From: a virus
Taxonomy: Duplodnaviria > Caudoviricetes
Virus record (IMG/VR): IMGVR_UViG_2889049205_000001
Span: 64,001 to 128,000 of that record
Strand: one strand, 5' to 3'
Length of the DNA: 64,000 nt
Shown here: positions 39,106 through 63,184 of the stretch, in pieces
Position numbering within the stretch: position 1 is the first letter of the stretch
Layout of the letters: every line of letters begins with the position of its first letter
Program-made: the position numbers and the translations under genes
Notes under the pieces: model-generated
The model's database searches: none
The model's input: only the letters and a program-made list of their open reading frames with translations
Told to the model about the DNA's origin: nothing

Positions 39106-39545
39106 AAATCAGATTCACACACCCTTCGGGTTAACCACATGCAGCCGGCACCATCGTGCTTGCACCATGCTGTGCGGCCCCACCCATTTGCTACCCCGCT
39201 CCTCCCTCCGTATCATGACCACGCATCATTCCCCGATGCACGCACCACAGGCCTGTCGGCCTCATTCATGATGATGCAACACGACCATGAAAGCCACCAG
39301 GATATCGTCTCGCACCAGAACAGCAAACGTGGGGTAACTCAGCAATGTTATCTGCATAAAGCAGTCCATGCCCTCCCAGGGCGTGGCTGCAGGTTCACCA
39401 GTGGCATGTGTGTTGTGTGATGGCCGTGAAACGAGCAAACCTGGCGAAAGAATTTCCAGTTGCGTATAGCATGCTTATGTTATGATGGTTCTATTCGTCT
39501 TTCTTGATTATATGTTATGAGACTGTCGTGCGAGGTGCGTTATCA

Positions 39546-40043
39546 TTGATTGTTCATCGTAGATCCAAGGAGCATTATCCGGTTGAGTTTCAGCCGCTTA
39601 CCTCAAGGGACGTGCAGCGCATGGTTAAAGACGGCGGCCCGAACAGTTGGGAGCCGGCATTCGACTGGTCGCTGTATTTCCGTTACAACCGCACTGAAGT
39701 GTATAAGATGGTCATTAAGGGTAATGACTACATACAGGGCTGCATTGCCTTCGAGATCAAGGAAGATCATGTCTATGTACACTTGATCGAATCGGCTCCC
39801 CATAATTTTAAGGGTAAAGAGTTCGAGATGATCGGCGAGCACATGCTTGCTTTTGCGTGTAAGCGAAGCGAGCAGCTCGGATTCGAAGGGGCCGTCGCAT
39901 TACAGTCGAAGACGGGGCCAAGATTTGTACCTCTTATGCGTTATTATATGGGCCCTAAGATTAGAGCCGAGCATCTCGGAAATGGGTACATGATTATAGA
40001 TGGCCCTTCAGCTGACCGGCTAATTATGCTATACTCTAATTAA
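39546..40043 (+). CDS. GNAT-family acetyltransferase (toxin-like)
   Basis: VYVHLIESAP.N....IGEHML.FAC..S...GFEG.V.L.SK...YY pattern. Confidence 0.7.
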   Translation: MIVHRRSKEHYPVEFQPLTSRDVQRMVKDGGPNSWEPAFDWSLYFRYNRTEVYKMVIKGNDYIQGCIAFEIKEDHVYVHLIESAPHNFKGKEFEMIGEHMLAFACKRSEQLGFEGAVALQSKTGPRFVPLMRYYMGPKIRAEHLGNGYMIIDGPSADRLIMLYSN

Positions 40044-40046
40044 GGA

Positions 40047-40238
40047 GTGATGATGCTTATGAGAACAAGACCATATGCTAGGCTGTATGCGCCAATGAGA
40101 TCTCTTGATGACGCTGCTCGTCTTGCCGGCGGGTACGTAAAGCAATCTCTTCCTGTTGAGAACCAACAACGTGATCAGATGATTTCAGAGGCTATTGCCA
40201 ATCGTAAGAATAAACGTGTTGCGAAGGTCCGCTCTTAG
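40047..40238 (+). CDS. Small basic protein paired with the GNAT gene
   Basis: RBS AAGGAG; followed by a terminator at about 40224-40257. Confidence 0.55.
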   Translation: MMMLMRTRPYARLYAPMRSLDDAARLAGGYVKQSLPVENQQRDQMISEAIANRKNKRVAKVRS

Positions 40239-40499
40239 GAGTGGGCCTTTTTCTTTTGGTTCGTGATCTGTATAAAGCTTAATGCTACATATGGGGGCCG
40301 AGTGAATACGAGGCCCATATCAGATACATAGAAGTGATGTGCCTATACGATTGCTTTTCATACTGATGACTATGTGTATTGGTATGATGATCCTTTCAAT
40401 GAGGATCGTCTATAGTTCTCTCTCTTCCCCCGCCCTCCTCGCTTGGTAATCCTTTCCCCTGATTATGGTATACTATCAACATAGAAAGGTTGTGATCCT

Positions 40500-40676
40500 A
40501 TGAATATTGCTGTGTGTGAGAAAGACGGCATTACCAGTGTCCCGTTGTCTGAGGTAATGTACGTCAGCACTGAGGAGAATGCCGGAACCAAGAGAGTCGT
40601 TGTCCAAACGGCGAGCGGGAATTATACGCTGCCTGCAACACTAGCTGAGTGCGGTCAGCTCTTCGAGAAAAAGTGA
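40500..40676 (+). CDS. Truncated LytTR-like protein (58 aa, monocistronic)
   Basis: VPLSEVMYVS....RVVVQT..G.Y.L..TL.E; TGGTATACT promoter upstream; terminator at about 40675-40702. Confidence 0.55.
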   Translation: MNIAVCEKDGITSVPLSEVMYVSTEENAGTKRVVVQTASGNYTLPATLAECGQLFEKK

Positions 40677-40829
40677 GAGAGCCCTCGTGGTTCTCTTTTT
40701 TCGTGTTGTGGTGCTTCATTTATGTATGCTCTCTATATGCTTCGTGCGTATAGGGAGCTTTTTTTATTCTCCCCCTTTCCCCAGGTTTGTGTAATGTGTT
40801 ACATTAGTCGATGAACTACAAGAAAGGAT

Positions 40830-41126
40830 GTGTTACATATGCACCCGCTCCAGGGTCATTATGCTCGTAGCTTGGATAAGCCATATGCTGCTGTTAAGGC
40901 TATCCGTAAGGGTAAGCGTCTTATCGTTGTCCCCGGCAGCTTCTTTATCAGTCGTGCAGATACTATGTTTATCTCTCTTCCCGACGACTACCAGGTGGTT
41001 TCTGAGGAAGGCAAGGTCCTTCCGGCCACCGGCTCGTTCATGATATCTGCAGAGACGTTCGATCCCTATCATGTGCTCGTAGACTATCAGCAGCAAGGGA
41101 GTGAAGCTAATGTCTCGGACGAATAG
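40830..41126 (+). CDS. Hypothetical protein
   Basis: RBS GAAAGGA; operator at 40789-40804 upstream. Confidence 0.5.
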   Translation: MLHMHPLQGHYARSLDKPYAAVKAIRKGKRLIVVPGSFFISRADTMFISLPDDYQVVSEEGKVLPATGSFMISAETFDPYHVLVDYQQQGSEANVSDE

Positions 41127-41944
41127 TGATCTGCTTGATATGTCTCCTGACGATATCATGGCTGCGTATGATGCTGCCGTGAAGCGTGGGGATCAGCAAG
41201 AAGTCGCTCGGCTGCGTGAGTTTATTATCGATCGGTTGTATCAGTCCAATTTCATATGATGGAGGTAGTGCTATGCTTATTGCAGATGTGGCTCACATTA
41301 CATATGTCTGTAGCTGTGTTGCATGCGGTAATGGTATTCCGCCTGAAGAGCGTGGATACTTTCGGAATCCCGCTTCCGGTGAGGAGTATTGCATTCCATG
41401 TGCTGAGCAAGAGATACATGCTATTGAGAGGGCGGGATAAGTATGCCAGATGATCTACGTAAGGCGCAGGCTGCTGATGTGTTCAGAGCACTTTGTGATC
41501 TATATCAGCAGCTGTATCCTGTATACGAGGGCATTACCCGCTACGCCTGGAGGCAGCATCATATGATGCATGGTTCTATGGCAATCAGCCATGAGGAATA
41601 TGGTAGTATCGTCTACTCTCTCGTCATGTCCGGGTTTGTGGAGTATCAAGATAGGAATGCGTTGTATCGTCCCGGAGCCGCCGGCCTTGCCAGACTGCAG
41701 CAGATATCGAATGGAGGGGCATAAATTGAGGATCCCAGTTAAAGTCACGAGCAAGGTTACAGGCAGGGTTGTCGAAGCATCCTATCCTGCTCGTAAGCTG
41801 CTTGATATGTACGAAGAGGAATTGGTGCAAGACATTACTAGATGCGATTGCCAGCCTGTTGGTGAAACCAATGTCGTGGATTGTTCTTGCTATGAGGAAT
41901 GGGAAGATTACGAGCTGCTAATTGGCGACGAGATCGCTGCATAG
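41110..41944 (+). other. Four small hypothetical CDS (41110..41259, 41273..41440 Zn finger, 41443..41724, 41726..41944)
   Basis: Tightly packed ORFs, each with an RBS. Confidence 0.5.
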
Positions 41945-41959
41945 ATCGGAGGGGTTACA

Positions 41960-42226
41960 ATGGAGCTCACTGCTGCCTATATGGATTGTCATATCATCGC
42001 CGATGCTTATCGTATGAATCCTGGGCTTATCTATGGATTCGTCTATCAGTTTCTGGATGATCCCCCGGTCTCCTATGTAGCACGTTGCATTCGGCATGAG
42101 ACTCATTCCTATCAGCATCGTGTGTTATTCAGTGTCCAGTCGAGAAGCGTTGAGCCCCATCGTGAGCGTGTTTCTCTGTATGCTGATGCCATACATAGTA
42201 TTAAGCTGCATTGGAGGATTCCTTGA
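41960..42226 (+). CDS. MEL-tag small beta-barrel-like protein
   Basis: MELTAAY; paralog of 43488..43829. Confidence 0.65.
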   Translation: MELTAAYMDCHIIADAYRMNPGLIYGFVYQFLDDPPVSYVARCIRHETHSYQHRVLFSVQSRSVEPHRERVSLYADAIHSIKLHWRIP

Positions 42227-42489
42227 TGGGTGCGAAGCCATTAAGACGATGCTCTTTCACCAAGGATAGTGTTAAGCATTACGCTCGCTTGCAAAGGACC
42301 GGTGATCGTTTCCCCCAGCCCGCCAGGATTGTTGTCGATAAGGAATACTTTGAGCATGTCGGCGGCGTCTATGGCATGGAGACTGTAGCCATATACGATA
42401 AAATCTATGAGGATTGGGCGTATGCTCATGCTGTGTATGATGAGATACTGCGTCGTGCTGATCCGAATAGTCTGAAGGAGTTGAAATGA
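42226..42489 (+). CDS. Hypothetical protein
   Basis: RBS GGAGG; overlaps the previous stop. Confidence 0.55.
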   Translation: MGAKPLRRCSFTKDSVKHYARLQRTGDRFPQPARIVVDKEYFEHVGGVYGMETVAIYDKIYEDWAYAHAVYDEILRRADPNSLKELK

Positions 42490-42493
42490 TTGA

Positions 42494-42727
42494 ATGGAGC
42501 TTGCTACTGCCTACCTGGAGCATCGTTATGATCTCGTTACTGACTGCTATATAGCTTCGGGTATGGTGATTGAATTCATCTACATTCAGGTGTTCGAAGG
42601 CGAGGCTGTCCGTGGCGTATATGAGGGCATGAATGACGATGGTTATGTCATGGTCTATGATGGGGAAGGTACTGAATTCTTTGAGCTCGCAAAGATCGTT
42701 TTTGCAGAGAATGTGGGGTGGCCTTAA
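42494..42727 (+). CDS. MEL-tag small beta-barrel-like protein
   Basis: MELATAY. Confidence 0.65.
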   Translation: MELATAYLEHRYDLVTDCYIASGMVIEFIYIQVFEGEAVRGVYEGMNDDGYVMVYDGEGTEFFELAKIVFAENVGWP

Positions 42728-42948
42728 TGGAGCTTGCTAGCATCTATATCCTATCGGTTCGCATCTTGGGCCGTGTTTGGCGTGCTGGTCAGAAGATCAT
42801 ATACGTGCATAAGCATATGCCCTATGGTACGGACTATGAGCAAGGAACCATCATAGCATTTAGTGCTTCAGGGTTCTACGTAAAGAATAAGTGGGACTGC
42901 AATGTCCATATTCCTTACGATATCATTGAGCACATAGTGGAGGAATGA
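42727..42948 (+). CDS. MEL-tag small beta-barrel-like protein
   Basis: MELASIY; TAATG coupling. Confidence 0.65.
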   Translation: MELASIYILSVRILGRVWRAGQKIIYVHKHMPYGTDYEQGTIIAFSASGFYVKNKWDCNVHIPYDIIEHIVEE

Positions 42949-43199
42949 TCTTGGAGCTTGTTGCTGCGTATGCATCTTGTGAGGTGAAGGGAGTAAAGCT
43001 TTTTGCTGGCGACTTCATTTCATTCACCTTTCTGGGAGCTGGAGAGTTACGTGGATTCTTCCGTCGTGTTGATATGAGCCACGAGGTATTCAAGTATCTT
43101 GTCGTCGATGATGACAATAACGGCATTCCTCATCATTACCAGCTTCCCTATATATACGGGATTGAGGTTCATCCTGTCCCGTCCCGCTACCGGAGGTGA
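42945..43199 (+). CDS. MEL-tag small beta-barrel-like protein
   Basis: (MI)LELVAAY; TTG at 42951. Confidence 0.65.
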   Translation: MILELVAAYASCEVKGVKLFAGDFISFTFLGAGELRGFFRRVDMSHEVFKYLVVDDDNNGIPHHYQLPYIYGIEVHPVPSRYRR

Positions 43200-43206
43200 T
43201 TAGCTT

Positions 43207-43488
43207 TTGGAGCTCGTTAATGAATACTGCTGTGTGCATCAATCGTTTATGCTTCATGATATCGAGATTCGTGTAGGTGACTATGTAGGTTTCACCTATA
43301 CTGCTCCTACGATGTCTTATGAGATATCGGGTAATGTTCATGGTTTCGATATTTCCGCCGGCCTGATGTTTATGATCATTGATGATAAGTATGCAATGTA
43401 CGGACGTTCTGCCAAGAAGCATGCCGTGTATGGATATCCTTTGGATCAGGTGAAGGATCTCTACTTTCCTGCTGGAGATGTTGATTAA
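43207..43488 (+). CDS. MEL-tag small beta-barrel-like protein
   Basis: TTG start MELVNEY; RBS GGAGGTG. Confidence 0.65.
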   Translation: MELVNEYCCVHQSFMLHDIEIRVGDYVGFTYTAPTMSYEISGNVHGFDISAGLMFMIIDDKYAMYGRSAKKHAVYGYPLDQVKDLYFPAGDVD

Positions 43489-43829
43489 TGGAGCTTGTTG
43501 CTGGCTATATGAATAGCTTCGTTATCCCCGATCCATTGGATATGTTGCCTGGCTCTGTCTATAGGTTTGAATATACTTTACAGGATGGCACTCCTGTTTC
43601 CTTTATAGCTGAATGCATGAAGCATTGGCGCTCTGGTGGTCAGGACCGAATACAGATCCTTATCTTCTATCGCAGCGGCGGACATGGTGCCAACATCTTA
43701 TCCCTATACAGTGAAAGGATACGTAATATCCGTCTGCATTGGAATGAGTGCAAGCATAACTGGGCTCTTGATGAGAGAGAGGATAAATGCTTTTGCGAGG
43801 TCTGCGGTATATGGGAGGATGAATTATAG
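43488..43829 (+). CDS. MEL-tag beta-barrel-like protein with C-terminal Cys/His motif
   Basis: MELVAGY; CKH..CEVC. Confidence 0.65.
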   Translation: MELVAGYMNSFVIPDPLDMLPGSVYRFEYTLQDGTPVSFIAECMKHWRSGGQDRIQILIFYRSGGHGANILSLYSERIRNIRLHWNECKHNWALDEREDKCFCEVCGIWEDEL

Positions 43830-43981
43830 TGGAGCTTGTCTCTGCCTATATAGAGTGTAAGCATGAATATGCGCTTATCGGAACTTTTGGTCGTTCTGGT
43901 TATATGATTTATGAGTATTACTGTCCTTTGTGCAATCATACGAAAGAGGAGGTGTACTATGGACCCGACTCAGTTAACTGA
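43829..43981 (+). CDS. MEL-tag Zn-finger microprotein (50 aa, not in the ORF track)
   Basis: GTG overlapping TAG; MELVSAYIECKHEY...CPLC. Confidence 0.6.
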   Translation: MELVSAYIECKHEYALIGTFGRSGYMIYEYYCPLCNHTKEEVYYGPDSVN

Positions 43982-44102
43982 ACAAATCGCTGTTGATGAT
44001 CTTCCTTTCTCCGATCCCGCTTCCCTGCTGTATAAGGAGGATCTCGAGGTAATCGATGACATGTGCGTGTGCGAGAACTATCCGTTCTGCGGCTGCATGT
44101 AG
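43959..44102 (+). CDS. Small acidic Cys-rich protein
   Basis: RBS AGGAGGTG. Confidence 0.5.
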   Translation: MDPTQLTEQIAVDDLPFSDPASLLYKEDLEVIDDMCVCENYPFCGCM

Positions 44103-44111
44103 GATTGCCCC

Positions 44112-44294
44112 ATGGAGATGATCCGTATGTATCTGGACCTTAGTGGTCTTGAGCTTGTCCCCTGTCCCTCGTGCAGCAGCACTGGTAAGATTAAGCGTGT
44201 TTCGTTCATTGATGGGCGTTACGTGTATTCGTATCCGCCCTGTACATTATGCAATGGTGGCGGCATTGTCACCTTGCACAGATATAGGATGTGA
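44112..44294 (+). CDS. MEL-tag-like DnaJ-type Zn-finger protein
   Basis: MEMIRMY; CPSCSSTG..CTLCNGGG. Confidence 0.6.
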   Translation: MEMIRMYLDLSGLELVPCPSCSSTGKIKRVSFIDGRYVYSYPPCTLCNGGGIVTLHRYRM

Positions 44295-44587
44295 CTGTAT
44301 TGGAGCTAATTGCGGAATACCTTTCTTGCACCCAGCTCTCCCGCTTTGTATTCGCCCGGTTCGGTCATAGTTATGGCTATGATCTCGGCATTCGCTTGAA
44401 GGTAGAACATACCGATTGCGAACTCGATGAAGATGGCGATTACGGCTATACCGAGTTTCATTATGGCGACCTGCGCCAGGTGACGCACCATTGGATCGTA
44501 CTGCGGGAGAGGTCTGCTGAAGGTTTTATTGACCATGTGATCAAGCGTTCAGAAATCATTGATGTTGTGTCCCAGGAGAGTGCTTAA
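44291..44587 (+). CDS. MEL-tag protein
   Basis: LELIAEY (TTG at 44300). Confidence 0.6.
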   Translation: MTVLELIAEYLSCTQLSRFVFARFGHSYGYDLGIRLKVEHTDCELDEDGDYGYTEFHYGDLRQVTHHWIVLRERSAEGFIDHVIKRSEIIDVVSQESA

Positions 44588-44832
44588 TGGAACTGATTCG
44601 TGCTTATCTGATCGACAAGTTTGTTGTTGGCCAAATTTATTGGGTCGAGTGCGCCGATCATAACTATTCTGGCACCTATATTGGGAATCGGAGTGTGTTC
44701 GGTGATATGGCTCACGAGTTTCAAGATACTGTGCAATATAAGCGTGACAGCAAGGAGCGGATGCTACAGTCGAATGTATTGCTCTTCCCGGAGGAAATAA
44801 ATCTGATTCGCCGGCGATCCTTCGCTCGATGA
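44587..44832 (+). CDS. MEL-tag small beta-barrel-like protein
   Basis: MELIRAY; TAATG coupling. Confidence 0.65.
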   Translation: MELIRAYLIDKFVVGQIYWVECADHNYSGTYIGNRSVFGDMAHEFQDTVQYKRDSKERMLQSNVLLFPEEINLIRRRSFAR

Positions 44833-44889
44833 GGCTGTCGCCTCCATTCTATTTGATGCTATACTCTACAAAGAAACGAGGTATTATCA

Positions 44890-45153
44890 TTGTCTATCAC
44901 TAATGAGCTGCCGCATCCTATTCGCCGTGGAAAGAAGCGAGTATCTGTTACAAATCCGAATGGCCGCATGTTATATCATGAGCTGCTGTGCGTGGAGTCT
45001 GTTGCATTTGAGCCTGCTGGTCGGTCCGGCCCTTCCGAGGATGGTGGCCGTACTTATCCGGTAATTGAGACGATCGGGTATGTATCCCCAGAAGCAGAGT
45101 GGTATCTGCTTGCTTGTGGCTATCGTGTTGAACCTTACGTTGGGGAGGATTGA
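44890..45153 (+). CDS. Hypothetical protein
   Basis: RBS GAGG; preceded by a hairpin element at 44831. Confidence 0.5.
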   Translation: MSITNELPHPIRRGKKRVSVTNPNGRMLYHELLCVESVAFEPAGRSGPSEDGGRTYPVIETIGYVSPEAEWYLLACGYRVEPYVGED

Positions 45154-45554
45154 TCATGTCCAAACTTCCACGCCGCTGGTATGATCCTCTGGCTCATAAG
45201 TTATCTGATCTATATGGCGCCCAGGTATTTGATCAACCAGGCCTTGGTAATGGCATCTTTCTGGTGAATGATAGTCTCGATCTTTATATCCGTGTTCTGC
45301 CAGAATACGGTATGACGATCGCTCGCATTGATGTCGGCGAGGGGCATACTCGCAATGGAATTGGCTCTGCTATCGTGGAATGGTGCAAGGAATTTTGCCT
45401 GCAGCATCGTATTCCCGAGCTAAAGATGGAATGTGTGCTAACGGAAGAATGTGCAGCGTTCTGTCGTAAACAGGGCTTTTCGTTGGCTCGTCCAAGTGAC
45501 GATCTGTGTTTCGATTGGGTGCTTCCGATCCCGATCCCGGAGGTGACTGTATAG
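45150..45554 (+). CDS. GNAT-family acetyltransferase
   Basis: IARIDV....RNGIGSAI....FCRKQGF. Confidence 0.75.
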   Translation: MIMSKLPRRWYDPLAHKLSDLYGAQVFDQPGLGNGIFLVNDSLDLYIRVLPEYGMTIARIDVGEGHTRNGIGSAIVEWCKEFCLQHRIPELKMECVLTEECAAFCRKQGFSLARPSDDLCFDWVLPIPIPEVTV

Positions 45555-45844
45555 TGGAGCTTATTGCACATTACATTGAGCCTCGCCTGACTCCTGGCGA
45601 GCTCTATTTTATTCCGGGCATTAATCTTTCATACCGTGGAGTATATGTGGGGCCAGTTGATCAATGTGGTCAAACATTTTATGAATTCGCTCCTGCTTTA
45701 CCATTTGATCCGGAGACTGATTATATGGTAGGCCGGCAATCTATGGTGCAATTCCTGCCCTGTGAATTAGCCCTTGCCTCCCTTGTTCCTCGGCCAAACT
45801 CGTGGGAGACCTATATTAATCGCATTTATGGCGTATATGGTTAA
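45554..45844 (+). CDS. MEL-tag small beta-barrel-like protein
   Basis: GTG overlapping TAG; MELIAHY. Confidence 0.65.
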   Translation: MELIAHYIEPRLTPGELYFIPGINLSYRGVYVGPVDQCGQTFYEFAPALPFDPETDYMVGRQSMVQFLPCELALASLVPRPNSWETYINRIYGVYG

Positions 45845-45853
45845 GGAGGCATT

Positions 45854-46129
45854 ATGGAGCTCATTTCTGAATATCTCGATCTTCTCCCCCGCCCCCTGAC
45901 GATTGCCGAGACTTGTCCAGGCGTGTTTTACCGGCTACTTATGAAGAGCACGCACGCCAATGTAAATGAGCCTGGCTGGATAACCGCCCGTGTACGCCAT
46001 GCAGATGGAGAATTTACGACGTTGTATTTCGATGCCATTAAGAACCCTGATGATTCGATCACCGAGGGCAATTTCTTTGCCACGACACCCCAGATCCTTG
46101 GGATCTATCCGTGGGAGCATACATCATGA
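45854..46129 (+). CDS. MEL-tag protein
   Basis: MELISEY; RBS AAGGAGG. Confidence 0.65.
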   Translation: MELISEYLDLLPRPLTIAETCPGVFYRLLMKSTHANVNEPGWITARVRHADGEFTTLYFDAIKNPDDSITEGNFFATTPQILGIYPWEHTS

Positions 46130-47472: not shown

Positions 47473-47955
47473 GTGCATTTTACTATCCACCAATTGAAGC
47501 GGGAAGGCAACATTGAGTTTGCATTTCAGTTCCTTAGCATCTTGAAGCTGCGCAATGCCCCATTCATGGAGCACAACGAGGATCTCGATCAGTATTCTTT
47601 CGATATCGATTCCTTCAACGAGGTTTATTCTCGTGACCTGGCATCTATGGGGATCCAATATTCCGATTGTCTACTCGACTTTCACAAGCAGTCCGAACGT
47701 ATTCTCGAGGAGTTGTTCGGTATCTTCAATATGCAGATTCCTGATGATTTCAAGGGTTGGTCAATGAGCTGTGGCGATATCGTTACGCTGCAGCACGGTG
47801 AACACAAGTTTATGAAGGCATCCTACTTCTGCGATGCAGCAGGCTGGAAGCAGATCAATGTATTCAGTGGAGCTGATCGTCATGCTCAACGTGAAGAGAT
47901 CCGGGATCGGGCTCGTAAACGTCTGGCTGCTCTTCGATCCGGTACGATTCATTAA
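47473..47955 (+). CDS. YodL-like domain protein
   Basis: LEELF.IFN...PDDFKG.SMS.GDIV.L....YFCD..GW signature. Confidence 0.75.
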   Translation: MHFTIHQLKREGNIEFAFQFLSILKLRNAPFMEHNEDLDQYSFDIDSFNEVYSRDLASMGIQYSDCLLDFHKQSERILEELFGIFNMQIPDDFKGWSMSCGDIVTLQHGEHKFMKASYFCDAAGWKQINVFSGADRHAQREEIRDRARKRLAALRSGTIH

Positions 47956-48018
47956 CTCGACTGAGCGAGTATAAACAGGCCTTTGGCTCAGTGCGGGCCC
48001 TCTATTTGAGGGTATGGC
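47955..48018 (+). ncRNA. Pistol ribozyme
   Basis: P1 ACTCG/CGAGT, loop ACTGAG pairing with CTCAGT, TAAACAG linker, GCG core, P3 GCCCTC/GAGGGT, P2 GCC/GGC. Confidence 0.75.
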
Positions 48019-48077
48019 TCACTTGGTTATGCCTATCGGCATGATTCTATGTGAAGTACAAAATAGGAGGTTTTCCT

Positions 48078-49877: not shown

Positions 49878-50317
49878 GCTTCATGCTTTGGTATTGGCCC
49901 CTGCCCTCTTTCAGCCGGCATCCCTATGACTAGGGTTTTATGTGCCAGCCGCTGGAGGGCAGACTAGCCCCAGGGTTATATGGAGCACCATGTCATGGTG
50001 AAGATTATGTATCCTCAACGATGTGTGACGGTTATGTATCATGACCGTGTATTGATGCCCATCGCCTTGAACCTTGAGGATGCTATATTTCCATATTTTC
50101 CATATGGCTCCTAATTGTTTTGAATAATCATGTCGTAATGTGTTACACAACTTAAAGTGTATCTATATATAATATATACCGACAAACCTGGGGTATTTAT
50201 AGATTTATATGTATAGTTCACAAAATAGACACACTGTGTTCTCATTGTTCCCCCCTAAACCGGCTATCGCCTGCATTCATTTTGGCATATAATGAATCTT
50301 GTTGATAAGGTGGTGTA

Positions 50318-53413: not shown

Positions 53414-53614
53414 CGCCCTATATCATAGGTCATCGACTTAGATAATTAAGGTATCTCGCTCTACATGATAGTTCATATACTGAGCTATGATGTAGGTCGA
53501 AATGCAACTCGCCCTACATGATATCTCATACATATAGCTATGCGCATCGGTCGCTATACTTCAGATTTCATAACTCGCTATCAATGAAGTAACCCGCTAT
53601 CCATGAGATTTCAT
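53414..53614. repeat. Degenerate direct repeats in a divergent intergenic region
   Basis: 35-nt copies at 53455 and 53508 (28/35 identical) plus partial CGCTAT..GATTTCATA copies. Confidence 0.6.
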
Positions 53615-53658
53615 AGAATAATCTTTGAGGAAAGTATCTGAAAGGGTTTGATGTAGGT

Positions 53659-55707: not shown

Positions 55708-56226
55708 ATGACATTAGAAGGAAAAGCTAAATTTGATGCAATGCGTTGCGATATTTGGATCAGCGGCACTGCAGCAATCGACGAAACGAGTGGAGGATAC
55801 GCTGCCATCCTGCGATCCCACATTGGTGGGGTGGACTACTCCAAGAAAGTTGCCGGCTATGGGCTGGATGGTTCTACCGTAACTCGGATGACGCTAAAAG
55901 CTGTTGTGGAGGCTTTGAAACAAATCAAACACCCAATGTTTGTTCACGTCTATACGACGCTGCCGCAAGTAAGCGCCGGCATCAACAAGAATTTGCGTAA
56001 GTGGGCGGCCAAGGATTTCACAAAGGGCCGTAAGAAGGAGCTGCTGCAGCACGAGGATCTCTGGCGTGAACTGTCTGCCTTGCTCGAGGAAAAATGCATT
56101 TCGTATAAATGCCACTTCCAGAAGGAAAGTCCAGATCCGCAGAACAATCTTCGTGCGATTCATACTGCATCGGAATACGCCATGAAAGCGAAGAAAACAT
56201 TCTTCGACGTGGCCATAGCTCAATGA
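55708..56226 (+). CDS. RNase H-fold protein lacking catalytic acids
   Basis: GGYAAIL, RMTLKAVVEAL, V.VYT, W...F, H.DLW.EL; S/T/T replace the D/E/D positions. Confidence 0.7.
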   Translation: MTLEGKAKFDAMRCDIWISGTAAIDETSGGYAAILRSHIGGVDYSKKVAGYGLDGSTVTRMTLKAVVEALKQIKHPMFVHVYTTLPQVSAGINKNLRKWAAKDFTKGRKKELLQHEDLWRELSALLEEKCISYKCHFQKESPDPQNNLRAIHTASEYAMKAKKTFFDVAIAQ

Positions 56227-56243
56227 GAGAGAAGGGGAGAGGT

Positions 56244-56808
56244 ATGCGAGATAAAATTTGCGCAGCTATCGACTATGCAATCGATCGTCCGAAGCTTTAT
56301 GTGCCCATCGGGATCCTGCTTCTAGGAATCGCCATCGCTTTGGGGCCGCTTGCACTGGTTATGTTTGCTCTGATGATACCTGTCATTGTGATGTACTTCC
56401 GCTGGACGCTGATCGAGGAGGAGCCCTCCAAGGTTGTCAAAGAAGAGGTGCATGAAGAAATGTTGCGCCGTCGCCGGAAGCACGCTTAAACCAAGCCTGT
56501 CGGCTTCATTCATTGCGAAAATTATATTAGGAGGAATATACATCATGTTGAATTACAAAACGTCTTTAAATCTTGCCACTTGCGATTCTGCTCAAGAGGC
56601 TAGATCGATCCTGTCGTCTATCGAAGCGTCGGTTGCTAGTGATTCCTTGAATCATGCCATCAAACAACTCGGCGACCAGGTAGAAGGCTTCATTGCATCT
56701 GGTCATCATAATCTGGCTCTTTTCACATTGACTCGGCTTGCCATGCTGGAAGATCTTCAGCTTAACGTCGAGCGCATGGCCAACAATGTGCAATCCCTTC
56801 GAAGATGA
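56244..56808 (+). other. Two small CDS (56244..56489 membrane; 56545..56808)
   Basis: RBS-bearing ORFs. Confidence 0.5.
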
Positions 56809-56951
56809 ATAAGGCGCTGGTCGTGATTGGCGTCATCTGTCTTATTGGCGGCAACGTTATGGCGTTGCCGCTTATTTTTATTTGCTGGCTCATTTATCAA
56901 TGGATCCGAAACGGAACCTAAACCAACCCAATTTCGAGGAGGAAATATCCA

Positions 56952-57824
56952 ATGATTCAACTTATCCAGAACGTAATTAAAAACAGCATCCGTGTCGAAG
57001 TCAAAGAAAAGAATCGCTATGAACAGTATCCGGTAATCGTCACTGATGTAGCTGAGGGTTCCATCACAAATGGCTGGTCGCTCACTTATTATCCAAAGCT
57101 GACGCATGACCGTCAGCGCTTGTACGACATCAAGCAGGCGTTCGGGTCTCTTGGTATTACCATGTTCAGCAACCTGTACAATGCAGTCATGTCTGTCGAT
57201 CAGCGTTTTCTCGCCGGCGAAGGCGTGCAAGAGCTGCGTGGTCGGAAGCATGCAGCCTATGAGTTCGGAGACGGAACGGGTCGCATTACTTCTCGTTTTG
57301 CTTGCATGCAAAAAGAGCATAGCAATACAATCACAGTTTCGATCCTTGACTCCAATTCGCCATTCTATATGCTGTCCATTAATTTCACGGTTATGAATAG
57401 CAAACAGGAGCCTGGAAAACGTCACATGGTGGGGTCCGACAAGCAGTGGGATGCAGCCATTGACGTGTTCAATGAGCGCAATGCTCAGTTCGCTCCGGAC
57501 AGCGCACGGTTCATTCAAGTATTTCAGGAGGGGGAAAACACCTTTCCTTATGTACGAGCAGCGATGCAGTCAGGTATGAATGGCGTATCTCAGGTCGATC
57601 CTAATGCTAGCTTCGTATGGCGCCGAGATATTTCTAATGAGTTTCAAGCATTGGCGCTGGCCTATGAGAAAGTAATTCTTCGGACGGCCATGGAAGTAGC
57701 TTATGACAGTATTCGACATACACTTCAGGCCACAAGAGTCCAAGAGCCTACTTTAGCTTCCGGAAATGTTGGCCCATTCGGTATGGCCGCCGGTGCAGTT
57801 GCGTCTGGATGGCAGCCAAGATAG
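56952..57824 (+). CDS. Hypothetical protein
   Basis: RBS GAGGAGG; 290 aa. Confidence 0.65.
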   Translation: MIQLIQNVIKNSIRVEVKEKNRYEQYPVIVTDVAEGSITNGWSLTYYPKLTHDRQRLYDIKQAFGSLGITMFSNLYNAVMSVDQRFLAGEGVQELRGRKHAAYEFGDGTGRITSRFACMQKEHSNTITVSILDSNSPFYMLSINFTVMNSKQEPGKRHMVGSDKQWDAAIDVFNERNAQFAPDSARFIQVFQEGENTFPYVRAAMQSGMNGVSQVDPNASFVWRRDISNEFQALALAYEKVILRTAMEVAYDSIRHTLQATRVQEPTLASGNVGPFGMAAGAVASGWQPR

Positions 57825-57974
57825 TCGTATTGGGTGCTGTGGGTAAAGTTTCCTTGCAGCACCCGATGCACATTTCACCGAATATTGCTATAATATTCTA
57901 GGAGCATTGGATATCGTATTGACGGACCTAATGCTATACTTTATGGGTCCTTTTGCCCCCGAGGAGGGTTTCGT

Positions 57975-59822
57975 TTGATACAGGTTCGATCGCAATATAA
58001 TAATATATACGTGAAGATTCTCGATTCCATGGAGACTTTTGATCTGACCCTTGAAAAAGTGCGGTCAATTCCAGATCGATCCTTCAACATGGCCACAGGG
58101 GAGTGGATGTTTCCACGTACTCATATCGGCCATCTTCTTTATTGCTTCAACAATCAAATCAGTTGGATGACTCCTCTTGCTGAAATTGTACAAGATGTCC
58201 CAATTGATAATGAGCTTGTTAATCAGCATTTGCAATGGGAGTCTGAAGGGGAGTTCAAAAACTTCCTCATACCGATGTACCCGTACCAGAAGGTTGGATC
58301 TAATTTTTTGATCGACCGTGGATCTGGCGCTGTGTTTGACGGCTGCGGGCTGGGGAAGACGCCTCAATTGATCGGTGCGATCATGAAGCTTAATGAAATG
58401 GGTAAAGCTGAAAAAGCACTCATCGTTACGCTCAACAGTTTGAAACGACAATGGGCGAAAGAGATTGAGAAATTCACAGGCGAGACAGCTTTGGCCGCCA
58501 CCGGCACATCCGATCGAAGAGGCAAGATTCTTCGAGAATTTGGCCGGCGCAAAGAAATTAAATTCCTTGTAGTTAATTACGAGATGCTTCGATCAGAGAG
58601 CTTCATGAAAATCCTAAAATCGATTAAGATCGATGTAGTTGCTCTTGATGAAGCACAGAAAATAAAGACGGGTGTTACAGATGCTTATCTGGACATTAAG
58701 CCGAGCCAGAACGCAATGGGTGCCCATGAGCTGAAACATATTCCATACCGTTTTATTGCGACGGCCACGCCGCTGCAGGGGAAAGCCGAAGAAGTGTGGA
58801 GTCTGTTTTACTTCCTGGACGAGAATATTCTTGGACCATGGGAATACTTCCGTGAAAGGTATTGCACCTATTCCAAAAAGTATGGCATCACTGGTTATCA
58901 GAACCAGGGCGAACTATACTATCGAATTGCACCGTACTTCATCAGAAGGACGAAGGATATGCCGGAAATCCAGCAGCAGCTACCGGAAGTTCAACACAGC
59001 CATGTCTTCTTAGAGATGACCGATCTTCAAGACAAGCTGCACAATTATTTACTGCAGCAGTTGGCTGATGTGAAGGAGCAGGCGAGAGGGATCAACGGCT
59101 ACACATTCCTTAACGGACAAAGTGTTTCGCCGCAAGAAGCGAAAGACTACTTCGATGCGCTGGCGCAAGGATATACTACCTTCTTAATCGAAACCTGCGA
59201 CTCCCCAGAGCTCATTTATAACAGCGCTTCTCAGATGGCACAACGGATCCGCACCGAGTTTGGATTGGACCCAAAATCGTTAAAGTCTCCGAAAATTGAG
59301 CACCTTAAAGACTTCTACGAGAACATGACGTTCGATGAGCCGAAGTCCAAAGTCGTTATCTTTACTCGATTTGAGGGCATGGCGCAGCTGATACACAAAC
59401 AGCTGCCTAACTCAGTGATCTATCATGGTGAGATGAGCGAGGGCGGCAAACAATTCGCTGTCGAACGATTCCGTGAGGATCCAGAGATTAAAGCATTTAT
59501 TTCGACTGACGCAGGATCAACGGGGTTAAATCTTCAGGTGGCGAATTACCTGATCCACGTTGATATGCCATGGGACCATACCTGGGTTGAGCAGCGAAAC
59601 GGTCGTATTGACCGGACAGGGAACCAGTTCAGCAACGTCACCATTTATTATTACTGCATGGGCGATAGCTATGACGAGCAGGTCCTGGAGATCATTAATC
59701 GCAAGTCCGAGCTGGCCGCCGCCATCATTGAAGGCGGAAGAGATTCGCATCATCGAGGCCCTGATGTTCACGCCTTGGCGATTGAACGGATGCTCAAGCG
59801 AAAGAATAAACAATTGGCCTGA
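57975..59822 (+). CDS. SNF2-family helicase/translocase with a HARP-like N-terminus
   Basis: GLGKT, LDEAQKIK, TATP, RRTK, STDAG.TGLNLQ, EQRNGRIDR. Confidence 0.92.
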   Translation: MIQVRSQYNNIYVKILDSMETFDLTLEKVRSIPDRSFNMATGEWMFPRTHIGHLLYCFNNQISWMTPLAEIVQDVPIDNELVNQHLQWESEGEFKNFLIPMYPYQKVGSNFLIDRGSGAVFDGCGLGKTPQLIGAIMKLNEMGKAEKALIVTLNSLKRQWAKEIEKFTGETALAATGTSDRRGKILREFGRRKEIKFLVVNYEMLRSESFMKILKSIKIDVVALDEAQKIKTGVTDAYLDIKPSQNAMGAHELKHIPYRFIATATPLQGKAEEVWSLFYFLDENILGPWEYFRERYCTYSKKYGITGYQNQGELYYRIAPYFIRRTKDMPEIQQQLPEVQHSHVFLEMTDLQDKLHNYLLQQLADVKEQARGINGYTFLNGQSVSPQEAKDYFDALAQGYTTFLIETCDSPELIYNSASQMAQRIRTEFGLDPKSLKSPKIEHLKDFYENMTFDEPKSKVVIFTRFEGMAQLIHKQLPNSVIYHGEMSEGGKQFAVERFREDPEIKAFISTDAGSTGLNLQVANYLIHVDMPWDHTWVEQRNGRIDRTGNQFSNVTIYYYCMGDSYDEQVLEIINRKSELAAAIIEGGRDSHHRGPDVHALAIERMLKRKNKQLA

Positions 59823-59833
59823 CGATTGACCAG

Positions 59834-59871
59834 GACATCCTTCATGTGTAAGATGGGGGATGTCTTTTTTT
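59834..59871 (+). terminator. Rho-independent terminator
   Basis: GACATCCTTCAT/ATGGGGGATGTC stem followed by a T run. Confidence 0.75.
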
Positions 59872-59890
59872 ATGCGTAAGGAGGGCTGAA

Positions 59891-60757
59891 ATGAAAAGCA
59901 AGGTTATTTTGCTCGACAACGGGAATGTGCTATACAACACCGGATGGGGGGAAGAACGCTGGGAGGAGAAAGAGCCATACACCTTGGTGCGACTTAACGC
60001 AAGAGGTGGGTCCCCGTATCCTGATGGGGAGTGGGAGTTCTCCGGCAGCTATGATATCGAGATCCGGACCGGCGACTTCGGAAACGTGTTCTGCTATACC
60101 GGATACGTCCAGGGAGACTATAATAAAATCAAGCGGGTGGATGGCCGCCGGATCCGTGGCCCGAAGTTTGAGGTTCGGCTTGTCCCGAAGTCGGACATCC
60201 ATTACGGTGTTACCGGCGAAGCTATCCTTCACCGCAAAGGCATATCCATCAAGAAAGCTAAGAAGCTGATCGTCGAAGCCGTCCGTGCTTACGAGGCTAC
60301 TGATCGGTTCAAGCAGGAGATCTGGCCACAGGTGTTGAATCCAGATGCCAGGAAACCGATCCTTAAAGAAATTGACGGCCAACTCATTTGGGTCGCCACA
60401 ACCTGGGGAAGTCCGTGGAGCGCTGTCCAAACCAAGAATGAATACAATCGCTATGGCGGTAATGCACTTGGATACGGACACTTTTTTTACCGTGAGTTGC
60501 AGCCGAAGCTTACATATCCGAAGACGGAAGATGGGTATAGCGATTTCAGCGGGCAGCCGACCAAAAATTATGAGGACCCACAATACTCGCACATAGAAGA
60601 ACGTGGCGGATCCACCTATGGCGGATGGGATAAGCGACATGATCCGGAAGAGATGAAGAAGCGGATCGATGAGGCCATCTACGATCTGAATGATTTAGCT
60701 CAGGTCTATATTGCCCAATTACAGTTCCGATCAATCGATTGGGGCAAATCGAGGTGA
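59891..60757 (+). CDS. Hypothetical protein
   Basis: RBS AAGGAG; 288 aa. Confidence 0.6.
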   Translation: MKSKVILLDNGNVLYNTGWGEERWEEKEPYTLVRLNARGGSPYPDGEWEFSGSYDIEIRTGDFGNVFCYTGYVQGDYNKIKRVDGRRIRGPKFEVRLVPKSDIHYGVTGEAILHRKGISIKKAKKLIVEAVRAYEATDRFKQEIWPQVLNPDARKPILKEIDGQLIWVATTWGSPWSAVQTKNEYNRYGGNALGYGHFFYRELQPKLTYPKTEDGYSDFSGQPTKNYEDPQYSHIEERGGSTYGGWDKRHDPEEMKKRIDEAIYDLNDLAQVYIAQLQFRSIDWGKSR

Positions 60758-61142
60758 GAAGCAACTGTTTAATATCAAGCAGCCTTGCAGCGACTGTCCT
60801 TTCCTTGCCAATGGCTTTATGCTTCAAACGCTTGAAGAGGGAAGGATAGAGAAGATCGTGCAAACTCTTCACGAGGACAGGTTATTCCGTTGTCACAAAA
60901 CCATTCAGTATGAGCTGGAGGAGAGTGACGGACATATCCCGCTCACGGAAAAAGATCAACACTGTGCCGGCGCACTGGTCTACATGCAGAAATGCGGCAA
61001 GGACAACGCCCCTATGCAAATTGGCGAGCGGCTTAGGATGTTTGACCCGTCGCAGCTGCGTGGCCACGATGACGTGATCGAGCCGCTCGAGATCTCCAAA
61101 TTTAAAGTGAGATTTGGCGATAATTTGAGCAATCATAAATAA
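60711..61142 (+). CDS. Cys/His-rich phage protein (true start probably near 60765)
   Basis: PCSDCPF..F.CHKT..HCAGAL. Confidence 0.6.
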   Translation: MPNYSSDQSIGANRGEKQLFNIKQPCSDCPFLANGFMLQTLEEGRIEKIVQTLHEDRLFRCHKTIQYELEESDGHIPLTEKDQHCAGALVYMQKCGKDNAPMQIGERLRMFDPSQLRGHDDVIEPLEISKFKVRFGDNLSNHK

Positions 61143-61254
61143 CTTGCAGATAAAAGCCACGATGTGCTAATCTAAAGCATATTGTGGCTTTTATGTAATG
61201 CATTACGTTAAATCGCCTGTCGGCGTCATTCATTTTGAAAGAAAGGAGGAGCCT

Positions 61255-61491
61255 ATGAACATAAGCATTAAGGAGCAGCCGGAGGTCATCTTCCTACACG
61301 ACTACTATTTCCGCTTCTATGGCCGCACGCCGGAAGACACCAATGAAAAGGGCCTACTTACTACAGTTTCCGCCCTGGACGAAGAGCAGGCGATGGAGTT
61401 CGCAGAGGCCGTCGCAGACAAAATGGCCACAATGCTGGGCATTGAGCGGGTGTTGTTTGAACGTTATCATGCCAGAAACCTTATGGATTAA
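61255..61491 (+). CDS. Hypothetical protein
   Basis: RBS AAGGAGG. Confidence 0.55.
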   Translation: MNISIKEQPEVIFLHDYYFRFYGRTPEDTNEKGLLTTVSALDEEQAMEFAEAVADKMATMLGIERVLFERYHARNLMD

Positions 61492-61529
61492 ATTCGTGTA
61501 ATGCATTGCACAACATAGGGAAAGATGCT

Positions 61530-62195
61530 ATGATGATTGAGGACAACTACACAAGTGAGGTGAAAACCTTGAGAAAACGCAAGATAATTGCAGGTATTCT
61601 CATCTTTTCGCTCCTCATTGCCGTAGCAGTTGTTAAAATCACTGATTATAACAACGTCTTGCGAGAGCAGCGTAAGATCGGTCATGATCTGGAGCTGAAG
61701 GTCCACATGCTTCAAATGGAGCAAACGGGCCTTGTAAATCACCTGCAGACATTGGAGGAGAAGAGTGATACACTCCAATCCAAGAATGAAAAGCTGCAGG
61801 AGGATAAGCGATCCTTGCAAGAGAAGGTTGACCAGCTCGAAAAGCAAGTGGAGCAAGAACGAGCCAACCAGTGGCAGAGCTTCAAAGCCACGTATTACGA
61901 TGCGGATTATCAATCCACCGGAAAGAGCCCTGGAGATCATGGGTATGGCATTACGGCTTCCGGTAGACACGTACAAGCCGGTGTGACGGTAAGCGTGGAT
62001 CCAAAAGTGATTCCATTGGGATCATGGATCGAAATTCTGTATCCGAACGGCAAAGTAGAGCGCAGACGTGCCGATGACACCGGTCGCCTTATTAAAGGCA
62101 AACATCTGGATATTTACATCCCGAAGGCGAGCAACACGTCGGGGAATCCGACCGTTAAAGTTCGCATCATTTCGGGGCAGAAGACAGCCGTGTAA
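61530..62195 (+). CDS. TM/coiled-coil 3D-domain cell wall hydrolase
   Basis: ATYY, GITASG, SVDP.VIPLGS, ADDTG..IKG..LDIY. Confidence 0.88.
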   Translation: MMIEDNYTSEVKTLRKRKIIAGILIFSLLIAVAVVKITDYNNVLREQRKIGHDLELKVHMLQMEQTGLVNHLQTLEEKSDTLQSKNEKLQEDKRSLQEKVDQLEKQVEQERANQWQSFKATYYDADYQSTGKSPGDHGYGITASGRHVQAGVTVSVDPKVIPLGSWIEILYPNGKVERRRADDTGRLIKGKHLDIYIPKASNTSGNPTVKVRIISGQKTAV

Positions 62196-62238
62196 TGCGG
62201 CTGTTCTTAATTCACTTGATTGAGGAGGAATACGTAGC

Positions 62239-63051
62239 ATGTCCCAAGAACAGTATGGCGATCTGTTTGATCATATGGTACCAGGCAGCAATCGAGAGCA
62301 TGCATCATCCGAATCGGCGCAACAGGAAGCCCAGGAAGTCCGAGAGTTCAATGATAAGTTGACTTCCGGCGACATGGTAGCCACGTCGTATTTGATGGTG
62401 AATGCTCTTTTGAATTTGCTGATCGATAAAGGTTACATAAAAGAGGATGAGGTTAGCAAGCTTATCGATGAGCTATGGACCGAATTCAAGGCAAAGAGGG
62501 GGCGTCGCACATGATTGCGATCCTCAAGCCTCATGTAACGCATTTCTCTGAAGAGCTGAAGTTTAAGGCACAGCCGAGAGATGATGTGGTCGTCGGCGGC
62601 AAAATCGTTAGCGTTGAAGTCATCCCTGAAGCATTCTTCGGTGAAACATACTTCAAGTTGATCCTCGATGACAGTATCGGCACAACGAAGGTTATCATCT
62701 CTAATGAGATGTATCATCATTGCTTTGCTGATATCGCCTTTGAGGGTCAATTCTTTCTCATTAAAGGCATTGTCAACGTGGTTTCCCGCAAAGTGGCCAC
62801 TGGCATAGAAAATCAGTATTCCGTTGTAGGCTACGAAATGAGCCCGTTGCCGATCGGGGAAGGAAGCACCCATGCGTAACGTGTTGGTCTTTCCGGATGG
62901 AACCGAACAGCATTTCATGTATCCAGTTGATCGTGAAATTTCGGAGGGTGAGCCCCTCCAGGTTACGATGCACGATGATTCCATGCAAATGTTCAAAATC
63001 GTTTCGATTGTCTCTGAAGAAAAACGGATCCTGTACTACTTATCTTTTTAA
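62239..63051 (+). other. Three CDS (62239..62514; 62511..62879 OB-fold-like; 62872..63051)
   Basis: Coupled ORFs; V.VGG.I..V...F.L.LDD.IG...VI resembles the DnaE-type OB domain. Confidence 0.55.
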
Positions 63052-63184
63052 GGAGGTGAGCTCGACTCGCCGATCGTCGTTGCCCCGTCGCCCTGTCGTC
63101 CTGGGAGATCTTGCGTAGTCGCTGTCGCTCCCATTCACTTTAGAATTTACAAATCCAAAAACCCAATTCACGGAGGTACTTCCC

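Follow-up and report, generated by a model that had tools for sequence, protein, structure and literature searches.

Covarying hairpin elements downstream of a predicted two-barrel RNA polymerase gene are candidate promoters of a jumbo phage-plasmid

What is the role of a small hairpin that recurs on one strand behind the polymerase gene of a jumbo phage-plasmid, and which enzyme reads it? The window in which this question arises is a stretch of 64,000 nucleotides, C3:64001-128000, from a source genome of 7.5 Mb in three contigs. A sequence-only reading of it had listed ten such intergenic elements downstream of the gene for an RNA polymerase (RNAP), here called P0001, and had proposed that they are structure-encoded promoters for this YonO-like enzyme or, alternatively, antitermination or RNA-binding signals. 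The observation itself is confirmed and is stronger than that reading had stated; the function, strand and enzyme of the elements are what we infer here from sequence features. Our best explanation is that they are promoters of a phage-encoded RNAP, most likely the non-virion two-barrel enzyme P0001, and we assign it a probability of roughly 0.55. We favor promoters because the elements are restricted to one strand and one gene block, are coupled to gene starts and are absent from the chromosome, and because no sigma factor was found on C3. The alternatives, in order of falling plausibility, are an element that acts in RNA, an RNAP encoded in the tail module, a redirected host RNAP and a terminator.

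A composite element confined to one gene block

The element has the consensus N4, CTRTCG, N4', CATTC, ATTTT, GA(A/T)(A/G)tA, in which N4 and N4' are the two arms of a stem. The string CTRTCG-N5-ATTC occurs nine times in the window, exclusively on the plus strand, compared to 0.34 occurrences expected from shuffled sequences, and none of 100 shuffles reached nine; the tenth listed site (46411) has CTTC in place of ATTC. By contrast, the hexamer CTRTCG on its own is not enriched in the window (67 observed vs 62 expected), and the signal therefore resides in the composite element. A covariance model was built from the C3 sites and scanned over the 7.5-Mb genome, a check that the sequence-only reading had proposed, and it separated 16 sites (31.6-42.2 bits) from all else, the next best genome match scoring 22 bits. 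All 16 copies lie on the plus strand of C3 between 103,253 and 158,961 (56 kb), the first of them beginning 208 nt past the end of the polymerase gene, and this whole-genome scan found no comparable element on the 7.05-Mb chromosome or on contig C2. The ten sites listed earlier were all found where they had been placed, on the plus strand and downstream of the polymerase gene, and six more copies follow beyond the window on the same strand (C3 135470, 139317, 146352, 149882, 153850 and 158961). The window copies, with their class and covariance score, are as follows.

39249..39278, plus strand: element 1, class A, AGGC CTGTCG GCCT CATTC atgat GATGCA, 36.7 bits
44831..44860, plus strand: element 2, class A, GAGG CTGTCG CCTC CATTC, 39.0 bits
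46407..46436, plus strand: element 3, class A, ATGC CTATCG GCAT GCTTC, 34.9 bits
46854..46883, plus strand: element 4, class A, CGGC CTGTCG GCCG CATTC, 36.3 bits
48029..48058, plus strand: element 5, class A, ATGC CTATCG GCAT GATTC, 38.4 bits
50260..50289, plus strand: element 6, class A with one C.T mismatch, CCGG CTATCG CCTG CATTC, 37.7 bits
52135..52164, plus strand: element 7, class A, GGTG CTATCG CACC TATTC, 33.5 bits
56493..56522, plus strand: element 8, class A, AAGC CTGTCG GCTT CATTC, 38.7 bits
61213..61242, plus strand: element 9, class A with an outer T.T, TCGC CTGTCG GCGT CATTC, 39.9 bits
63118..63147, plus strand: element 10, class B (stem fixed and poorly paired), GTCG CTGTCG CTCC CATTC, 34.1 bits

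C3, a jumbo phage-plasmid of 229 kb, is a separate replicon (228,841 bp, 50% GC) beside a chromosome of 7.05 Mb and 55% GC, and its genes fall into three blocks, of which the second carries every copy of the element.

C3 0-97.5 kb, minus strand: block 1, with terminase, the major capsid protein and very large tail-module proteins
C3 97.8 to ~177 kb, plus strand: block 2, with three small genes, then the polymerase P0001 (1227 aa), then dozens of small genes and finally replication and repair genes (two SNF2 helicases, RecA, ThyX, UvrD, a DnaG-type primase and a beta clamp)
C3 177.6-229 kb, minus strand: block 3

Within block 2 the elements are tied to the starts of genes. Fourteen of the 16 lie 36-64 nt ahead of a start codon supported by a ribosome-binding site (RBS), and the nine window copies that had been described as preceding a start codon do so at 38-64 nt from RBS-supported starts. 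Element 2 begins 3 nt past the upstream stop and 55 nt ahead of the next start, some elements overlap the 3' end of the upstream open reading frame (ORF), and the conserved GA comes close to the Shine-Dalgarno sequence (SD) in two copies, with the GAA of element 9 standing 7 nt ahead of it and the GA at C3 146352 only 3 nt from it; at the latter site a transcription start much further downstream would therefore exclude the SD. In the whole-genome scan no element was found ahead of the polymerase operon or in the two minus-strand blocks of C3, and the convergent junctions of block 2 (C3 116.5 kb and 177.6 kb), places at which one would expect terminators, have no copy either.

This distribution bears on a reading that we regard as highly improbable, in which the elements are pause sites or terminators, whether intrinsic or sequence-specific, and might double as promoters. 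A terminator scan flags three of them as weak terminator-like sites, and the corresponding stems in phage 0305phi8-36 and in a Paenibacillus urinalis plasmid, described below, are 6-8 bp long, GC-rich and followed by T runs. On C3, however, the T run stands 5 nt off a 5-bp stem, class B copies have no such stem, and the conserved GA and the bases downstream of it have no role in termination. Moreover, strong ordinary intrinsic terminators occupy other intergenic positions of the same block, and the distance that is fixed is the one to the downstream start, not to the upstream stop.

Two side observations concern the surroundings of individual elements. No convincing ORF occupies the 250-370 nt after element 1 (39253), and window 39280-39500 (plus strand) is partly conserved in the relative whose RNAP is 77% identical, as in CTGGGGTAACTC; this stretch could be a non-coding RNA or a long leader. 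A Pistol ribozyme (Rfam RF02679, 53.2 bits vs a gathering score of 34.5) occupies window 47955-48019 on the plus strand, between the end of a gene and the element at 48029, and is the sole ribozyme match in the ~193 kb of C3 searched (C3 20001-64000 left out).

Stem covariation and the strand of the hairpin

When the C and G of the hexamer are taken as a closing pair, the element forms a 5-bp stem with a TRTC loop, and the arms of this stem change together. The inner pair is C-G in eight and G-C in eight of the 16 C3 sites (nine and eight in a 17-sequence alignment). Over the 17 sequences, 85.9% of cells are paired vs 60% after shuffling and 28-53% in slid registers, and the covariation score is 0.621 vs 0.193 for shuffles, none of 500 of which scored as high. 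Likewise, a CTRTCG hexamer with at least four Watson-Crick flanking pairs accounts for 10 of 115 occurrences on the plus strand of C3, none of 78 on its minus strand and 39 of 6286 on the chromosome. The earlier description of a stem that is free in sequence and yet complementary thus holds in full for seven of the ten window copies and for three of four pairs at the hexamers at 50264 and 61217; at 63122, within the element at 63118 whose weak stem had been noted, the inner pair alone holds. The box and the G downstream of it were said to be at fixed spacing, and a G does stand 6 nt after ATTC in nine of ten copies.

The 16 copies form two classes. Eleven (class A) have free complementary stems, and five (class B; window 63122 and C3 135470, 139317, 149882 and 153850) have the fixed flanks G(T/A)CG and CTCY, in which just the inner and the outermost pairs can form. 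These flanks present tandem C.T/T.C mismatches on the sense strand and tandem G.A/A.G mismatches on the template strand. Tandem G.A mismatches are stable despite being non-canonical, and the class B stem, as judged from its bases, can pair on the template strand only, through these G.A mismatches.

The loops may point to the same strand. On the template strand they read C-GAYA-G, C-GAAA-G, C-GTTA-G, C-GGA-G and (TA)-GCGA across the lineages described below, and four of five copies in Bacillus licheniformis read GGAT, outside the G...A pattern. We know of no stable class to which the sense-strand loops TRTC, TCC and TCGC belong. By comparison, C-GNNA-G and C-GNA-G correspond to d(GC-GNNA-GC) and d(GC-GNA-GC), an unusually stable class of DNA mini-hairpin (PMC13037366) with a stability that depends on the closing pair (PMC3201870). 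We favor a hairpin formed at the DNA level on the template strand because of the G...A loops closed by C-G, the tandem G.A mismatches of class B and the likeness to the promoters of coliphage N4; together these sequence features argue for such a structure.

The same evidence bears on the possibility that the element acts in RNA, either as a sense-strand hairpin and box for binding or processing that makes or protects 5' ends, or in nut-type antitermination. We consider this unlikely, and still the foremost of the alternatives. Covariation cannot separate DNA from RNA, the outer stem contains a sense-strand G.T pair in two copies, and the sites are intergenic within long co-oriented gene arrays. 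The Pistol ribozyme 10 nt upstream of element 5 implies that read-through RNA is processed there, and lambda nut sites likewise pair a hairpin with a box. By contrast, the sense loops URUC, UCC and UCGC are not known as stable or protein-binding RNA loops, whereas the template loops are nearly all GNNA or GNA closed by C-G, and class B has tandem pyrimidine mismatches on the sense strand. An RNA element would also have to account for 16 copies tied to gene starts, compared to one or two nut sites placed after promoters, for a conserved A/T pentamer and GA that abut the SD and resemble a start site, and for the absence of any conserved sequence upstream of the hairpin that could act as a promoter.

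Relatives of C3 carry the same architecture. These relatives, from Paenibacillus, Bacillus, Priestia and Alicyclobacillus, comprise plasmids and contigs that measure ~185-260 kb, and in them the hairpin is kept, on the sense strand and downstream of the RNAP gene, with a loop and box that are lineage-specific. Identities below are those of the RNAP to P0001.

JGI contig (L002), 77% identical: orthologous first site at L002 13969, GGGC CTATCG GCCT CATTC
ENA/JGI 197-kb contig, 40%: ~10 hairpins with the hexamer CTATCG (CTTTCG in one of them), whose stems are new and whose box is CATTC or ATTC
P. urinalis plasmid, 39%: stem5, CTAACG, stem5', (G/A)GGGGC, TTTWTGA
Alicyclobacillus shizuokensis, ~39%: ATGC CTATCG GCAT TTTTGGTGAA and CCGC TTATCA GCGG ATTTTGGGGAA
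B. thuringiensis plasmid pd, 33%: stem, CTCCG, stem', NN, GTTTTTGAA
B. licheniformis pSCDB14, 29%: GCCCC ATCC GGGGC, a T-rich stretch, TGA
Phage 0305phi8-36 (L097, 165-213 kb, minus strand), no RNAP sequence match: stem3-4, CG TTCGCA CG, stem', TTTTGTA, in a dozen gaps

A single orthologous site can be compared in the 77% relative because its contig ends 1 kb after the RNAP gene; a P0001 protein search of 150 related genomes and a metagenome scan with the 1100-aa SNF2 protein found no further close relative. The 197-kb contig has a class-B-like copy at the orthologous place, and in the P. urinalis plasmid, where the tail after GGGGC reads TTTTTGAA, class B copies of the form GTCG CTAACG CTCC place the flanks of element 10 around a different loop. 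That plasmid has six forward and no reverse copies at 55.6-85.1 kb, behind an RNAP gene at 51.4-55.0 kb, and the B. thuringiensis plasmid has ten forward and no reverse copies (spacer GT, TTTTGAA), with none in controls. In A. shizuokensis, where the hexamer becomes (C/T)TATC(G/A), the closing pair itself covaries. Beyond C3, stems of independent sequence occur in four lineages. The diverged versions were found by eye and with loop-enrichment scripts, and the C3 covariance model gave no match to those of P. urinalis or A. shizuokensis. In a quick RNAP tree, which we use descriptively, the TATC-type loop occurs in basal lineages and the TAAC and TCC loops in derived clades.

Two candidate polymerases and the promoter reading

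C3 encodes two large proteins with polymerase motifs.

35362..39045, plus strand: P0001, non-virion two-barrel RNAP of 1227 aa, heading the element-bearing block
C3 48186-55109 (L006:8189-15109:-), minus strand: P0122, a 2307-aa ORF in the tail module with the motif GDADGDQLH

P0001 had no sequence match in the phages collection or in 0305phi8-36 and no BLAST-level similarity to YonO. Searches of the Protein Data Bank by sequence with P0001 and P0122, and of PHROGs and Atlas with P0122, returned nothing usable, and we therefore turned to fold searches. The P0001 family is recognizable by its GGxDxDGD motif, with GGADNDGD invariant in 17 homologues, and 11 of these 17 family members match the RNA-dependent RNA polymerase (RdRP) domain PF05183 (best E 2.1e-17), P0001 itself falling below threshold. 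An AlphaFold2 model of P0001 (mean predicted local distance difference test, pLDDT, 82.8) has QDE-1 as its best Foldseek match (E 1e-14, template modeling score 0.44-0.54), followed by RDR2 and then by P74 gp62 and crAss phi14:2 gp66. On domain, motif and model, P0001 is a YonO/RdRP-type two-barrel enzyme, and the polymerase type named by the sequence-only reading stands. P0122 lies between two tail-module giants of ~2000 aa. The model of its core, built from an alignment with two rows left out, is of low confidence (pLDDT 54), and its top Foldseek matches, among 233 at E<=0.001, are all second-largest subunits of cellular or viral RNAPs; homologues 31-61% identical occur on related contigs, including relatives with the type I element. 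P0122 is thus a second predicted single-chain two-barrel RNAP, probably associated with the virion.

We propose the following sequence of events. The polymerase gene would be expressed first, from a different signal, no element preceding it. The enzyme would then recognize a small template-strand hairpin, formed by extrusion, with a free-sequence stem of 4-5 bp, a C-G closing pair and a GAYA loop that together would form a C-GNNA-G mini-hairpin core, and would also recognize the adjacent fixed box (CATTC on the sense strand). The A/T-rich pentamer that follows (sense ATTTT, template AAAAT) may be melted or may serve as a spacer. Transcription would start at or next to the conserved GA, ~20 nt past the loop, as base conservation and an SD 3-30 nt further on suggest, giving 5' untranslated regions of ~16-44 nt that still include the SD. 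The 16 promoters would drive the small early genes as well as the SNF2 helicases, RecA, ThyX, UvrD, primase and beta clamp, and the structural and other genes would use host-type -10 boxes with a palindromic operator.

A host RNAP redirected by an unrecognized phage factor could in principle produce a similar arrangement, in which case CTRTCG would take the place of a -35 sequence and GAWRtA that of a -10 sequence. The 14 nt between the two are near promoter geometry, phage sigma-like factors often escape Pfam, and Hardies et al. could not exclude redirection for 0305phi8-36. We nonetheless judge this quite improbable, as a 'spacer' that contains a covarying stem and an invariant CATTC would be left unexplained, and a start 7 nt after a GAWRtA -10 box would exclude the SD at C3 146352 and 125217. 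In addition, a Pfam domain search found no Sigma70_r2 or r4 domain on C3, and C3 already has separate host-type promoters, with TATAAT-like boxes and the palindromic operator. A T7-like RNAP is not indicated either: PF00940 matched nothing in the genome, although it matched nothing in the control genomes either.

Alternatively, the promoter mechanism could be as proposed and the reader could be P0122, probably delivered with the virion as in coliphage N4. The motif GDADGDQLH, the matches of its core model to second-largest RNAP subunits, its place amid the tail-module giants and the occurrence of homologues in relatives with the type I element all speak for this, as do the many element-driven genes that are small and of early type and the fact that N4, the sole proven hairpin-promoter system, uses a virion RNAP. 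However, the P0001 operon has no element and instead a conserved AT-rich motif, an arrangement that fits a cascade in which P0001 is made by a different enzyme and then reads the hairpins; the elements head replication genes over 56 kb, beyond the expected reach of a few injected molecules; a plasmid-resident prophage has no injected enzyme at induction; and the P0122 model has a pLDDT of just 54. We therefore consider P0122 an improbable reader, marginally behind an RNA-level element in plausibility, and regard P0001 as the more likely one on positional grounds.

Several observations weigh against promoters read by P0001 as template-strand hairpins. The stems are short, often amounting to three inner pairs and the closing pair. 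Nearest-neighbor DNA energies are -4.1 to -6.6 kcal/mol and favor the template strand by only 0.3-0.8 kcal/mol (-5.1 vs -4.5 kcal/mol on the sense strand for element 2), nearest-neighbor DNA parameters do not fold class B, and supercoiling or a helper would be required for the hairpin to extrude from duplex DNA. The outer-stem mismatches include a sense-strand G.T twice (C3 146352 and L002), which fits an RNA or sense hairpin equally well, the non-Watson-Crick positions being too few and too mixed in type for G.T wobble to tell strand, or DNA from RNA. The sense loop of the P. urinalis type, UAAC, belongs to a known stable RNA loop class. The hairpins of 0305phi8-36 and P. urinalis are GC-rich with T runs close behind, and terminator-like activity is possible in both; in the phage, one copy stands upstream of ORF099, the RNAP gene. 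Finally, the assignment to P0001 is circumstantial, and C3 encodes in P0122 a second predicted two-barrel RNAP, which the sequence-only reading had not considered. The proposal of structure-encoded promoters for the YonO-like enzyme accordingly keeps the support of position, strand and covariation as regards a promoter function, which we read from sequence, and is weakened as regards the enzyme.

Other regulatory signals on C3 are of two kinds. The palindrome GTAAYGCRTTAC occurs 16 times on C3, once on the chromosome and not at all on C2; five copies lie in the window (28900, 29879, 33083, 48936 and 61195) and 11 more elsewhere on C3. It mostly adjoins TATAAT-like -10 boxes, in all three gene blocks, and the plasmids of P. 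urinalis and B. licheniformis carry it too. It resembles an operator through which a master repressor would act on host-type promoters. A TATAAT box and palindromic operator come after element 6. An AT-rich motif, CCTATAGGGG...AAAAAAAATT, of the form CCTATAG(G/C)GG...ATTTT..AAAAAAAATT, is found on the plus strand only, twice at window 33593-33710, just upstream of the polymerase operon, and once at C3 169285-169340. Four relatives (L018 7568/7636, L002 8238/8295, L020 18388 and L001 8137) conserve it in front of their polymerase operon. It could act as a promoter for a different polymerase or as a site for replication or partition. We infer that the three motif classes together would fit a multi-polymerase cascade.

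The replicon has further features. A direct repeat of ~4 kb that includes an 817-aa gene lies near both ends of C3 (6800-10750 and 218570-222520) and could reflect terminal redundancy or an assembly overlap. Four consecutive tRNA genes occupy window 29353-29743 on the minus strand, and a tRNA with an insert lies at C3 162412-162532 on the plus strand. Iteron-like repeats of CATGATAnnTCATA and its variants fill window 53430-53640, flanked by a 226-aa gene on the minus strand and the plus-strand genes that follow, and may be an origin or regulator sites; the P. urinalis plasmid has similar repeats of TTCATATGAT.

Comparison with known systems

Extended beyond C3, the proposal becomes more tentative: that a family of ~200-kb Bacillota jumbo phage-plasmids and phages uses template-strand C-GNNA-G/C-GNA-G mini-hairpins as the core promoter of a two-barrel single-chain RNAP has, in our view, a little less than an even chance of being correct. 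If true, the family would span Paenibacillus, Bacillus, Alicyclobacillus and phage 0305phi8-36 and would reveal a way for a minimal relative of cellular RNAPs to locate its promoters with no sigma factor. Loop and box would then co-evolve with the enzyme to yield natural orthogonal polymerase-promoter pairs, compact enough to be useful as tools in Gram-positive hosts. The elements supply a concrete, mutable promoter candidate of 35 nt with natural compensatory variants, and at least five lineage-specific versions matched to diverged polymerases make it directly testable in vitro.

Two familiar classes of hairpin signal differ from the element in layout. A lambda nut site consists of boxA and, after it, a boxB RNA hairpin whose loop is GNRA-like, present once or twice per genome and served by an N-type protein, whereas the 16 copies here have the hairpin before the box, URUC loops on the sense strand and no promoter motif that we could find upstream. 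Intrinsic terminators, for their part, are GC-rich stems that abut a U run at the ends of operons. A closer parallel in gene organization is phage P23-45, which has one two-barrel RNAP in the virion, associated with the tail, and another outside it, and a separate motif belongs to each. There the virion enzyme transcribes the gene for the second RNAP; on C3 the AT-rich motif precedes the P0001 operon and the hairpins follow it. No hairpin is reported for P23-45, and its motifs were assigned to enzymes by chromatin immunoprecipitation sequencing and transcription start site mapping, compared to position alone here.

YonO of SPbeta is a single-chain two-barrel phage RNAP with its own start site. 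Forrest et al. mapped one YonO start in SPbeta and left the promoter sequence undefined (PMC5467207), and in the literature searched we found neither a later definition of a YonO-type promoter after 2017 nor any account of a two-barrel RNAP with hairpin promoters. YonO has a single start that serves a single late operon, in contrast to the 16 early and replication sites of C3. In the SPbeta primer-extension interval a hairpin is followed 15 nt on by CATTTATGAGGG, which resembles the CATTC-ATTTT-GAA tail of the element, and a second copy lies 155 nt upstream; on the phage record (NC_001884, L023, minus strand) the two are at 20446-20435 and 20603-20592, each a hairpin and then CATTTATGA(A/G)GG 14-15 nt on. 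Both copies of CATTTATGA are kept only in a 97%-identical B. rugosus prophage (L024), in a YonO scan of genome contigs that covered 72 loci, strain 168 not among them. We treat this likeness as a lead, not a result, as the published start 2225998 could not be placed on the phage record. The SPbeta YonO start also precedes an unannotated non-coding RNA.

For the B. thuringiensis phage 0305phi8-36, Hardies et al. (2007) described 14 phage-specific 21-bp promoter candidates for the RdRP-like gp99 (Pfam05183), presented as a sequence logo in a text that mentions hairpins for terminators only (PMC2147016). The sites that fit these candidates are hairpins with a variable stem, CG TTCGCA CG, a T run and G(T/A)A. 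As on C3, the genome is of the jumbo Bacillota myovirus-like type, with an RdRP-family RNAP at the head of small early and then replication genes, a repeated intergenic motif on the sense strand that is absent from the host, and no sigma factor. The two differ in CG TTCGCA CG with TTTTGTA compared to CTRTCG with CATTC and ATTTTGAA here, and the B. thuringiensis-type element pattern is not enriched in 0305phi8-36.

The promoters of coliphage N4 are a close structural counterpart. They consist of a template-strand hairpin with a sheared G:A loop, a stem whose variable bases have no requirement beyond pairing, and a run of A ahead of +1 (PMC4496689). Like the early N4 promoters P1-P3, the element described here is a small, phage-specific predicted hairpin, absent from the host, with a conserved loop and a partly free and complementary stem; its template loops are nearly all C-GNNA-G or C-GNA-G (C-GGA-G in the B. 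thuringiensis type), and an A run on the template strand (ATTTT on the sense strand) lies between hairpin and putative start. By contrast, N4 has three promoters at one genome end compared to 16 over 56 kb here, its loop center is 11 nt upstream of the start as opposed to ~17 nt if transcription begins at the GA, and the element has an additional fixed 5-nt box, CATTC, after the stem. N4-type promoters depend on negative supercoiling and single-stranded DNA-binding protein for extrusion and activation. The N4 enzyme is a T7-like single-subunit RNAP, whereas both C3 polymerases are predicted to be of the two-barrel, cellular/RdRP type, and because these folds differ any likeness between the two systems would be convergent. 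If the hairpin is indeed read as a shape on the template strand, recognition of promoters by their structure would have two independent origins, in polymerase folds that are unrelated, T7-like in N4 and two-barrel here.

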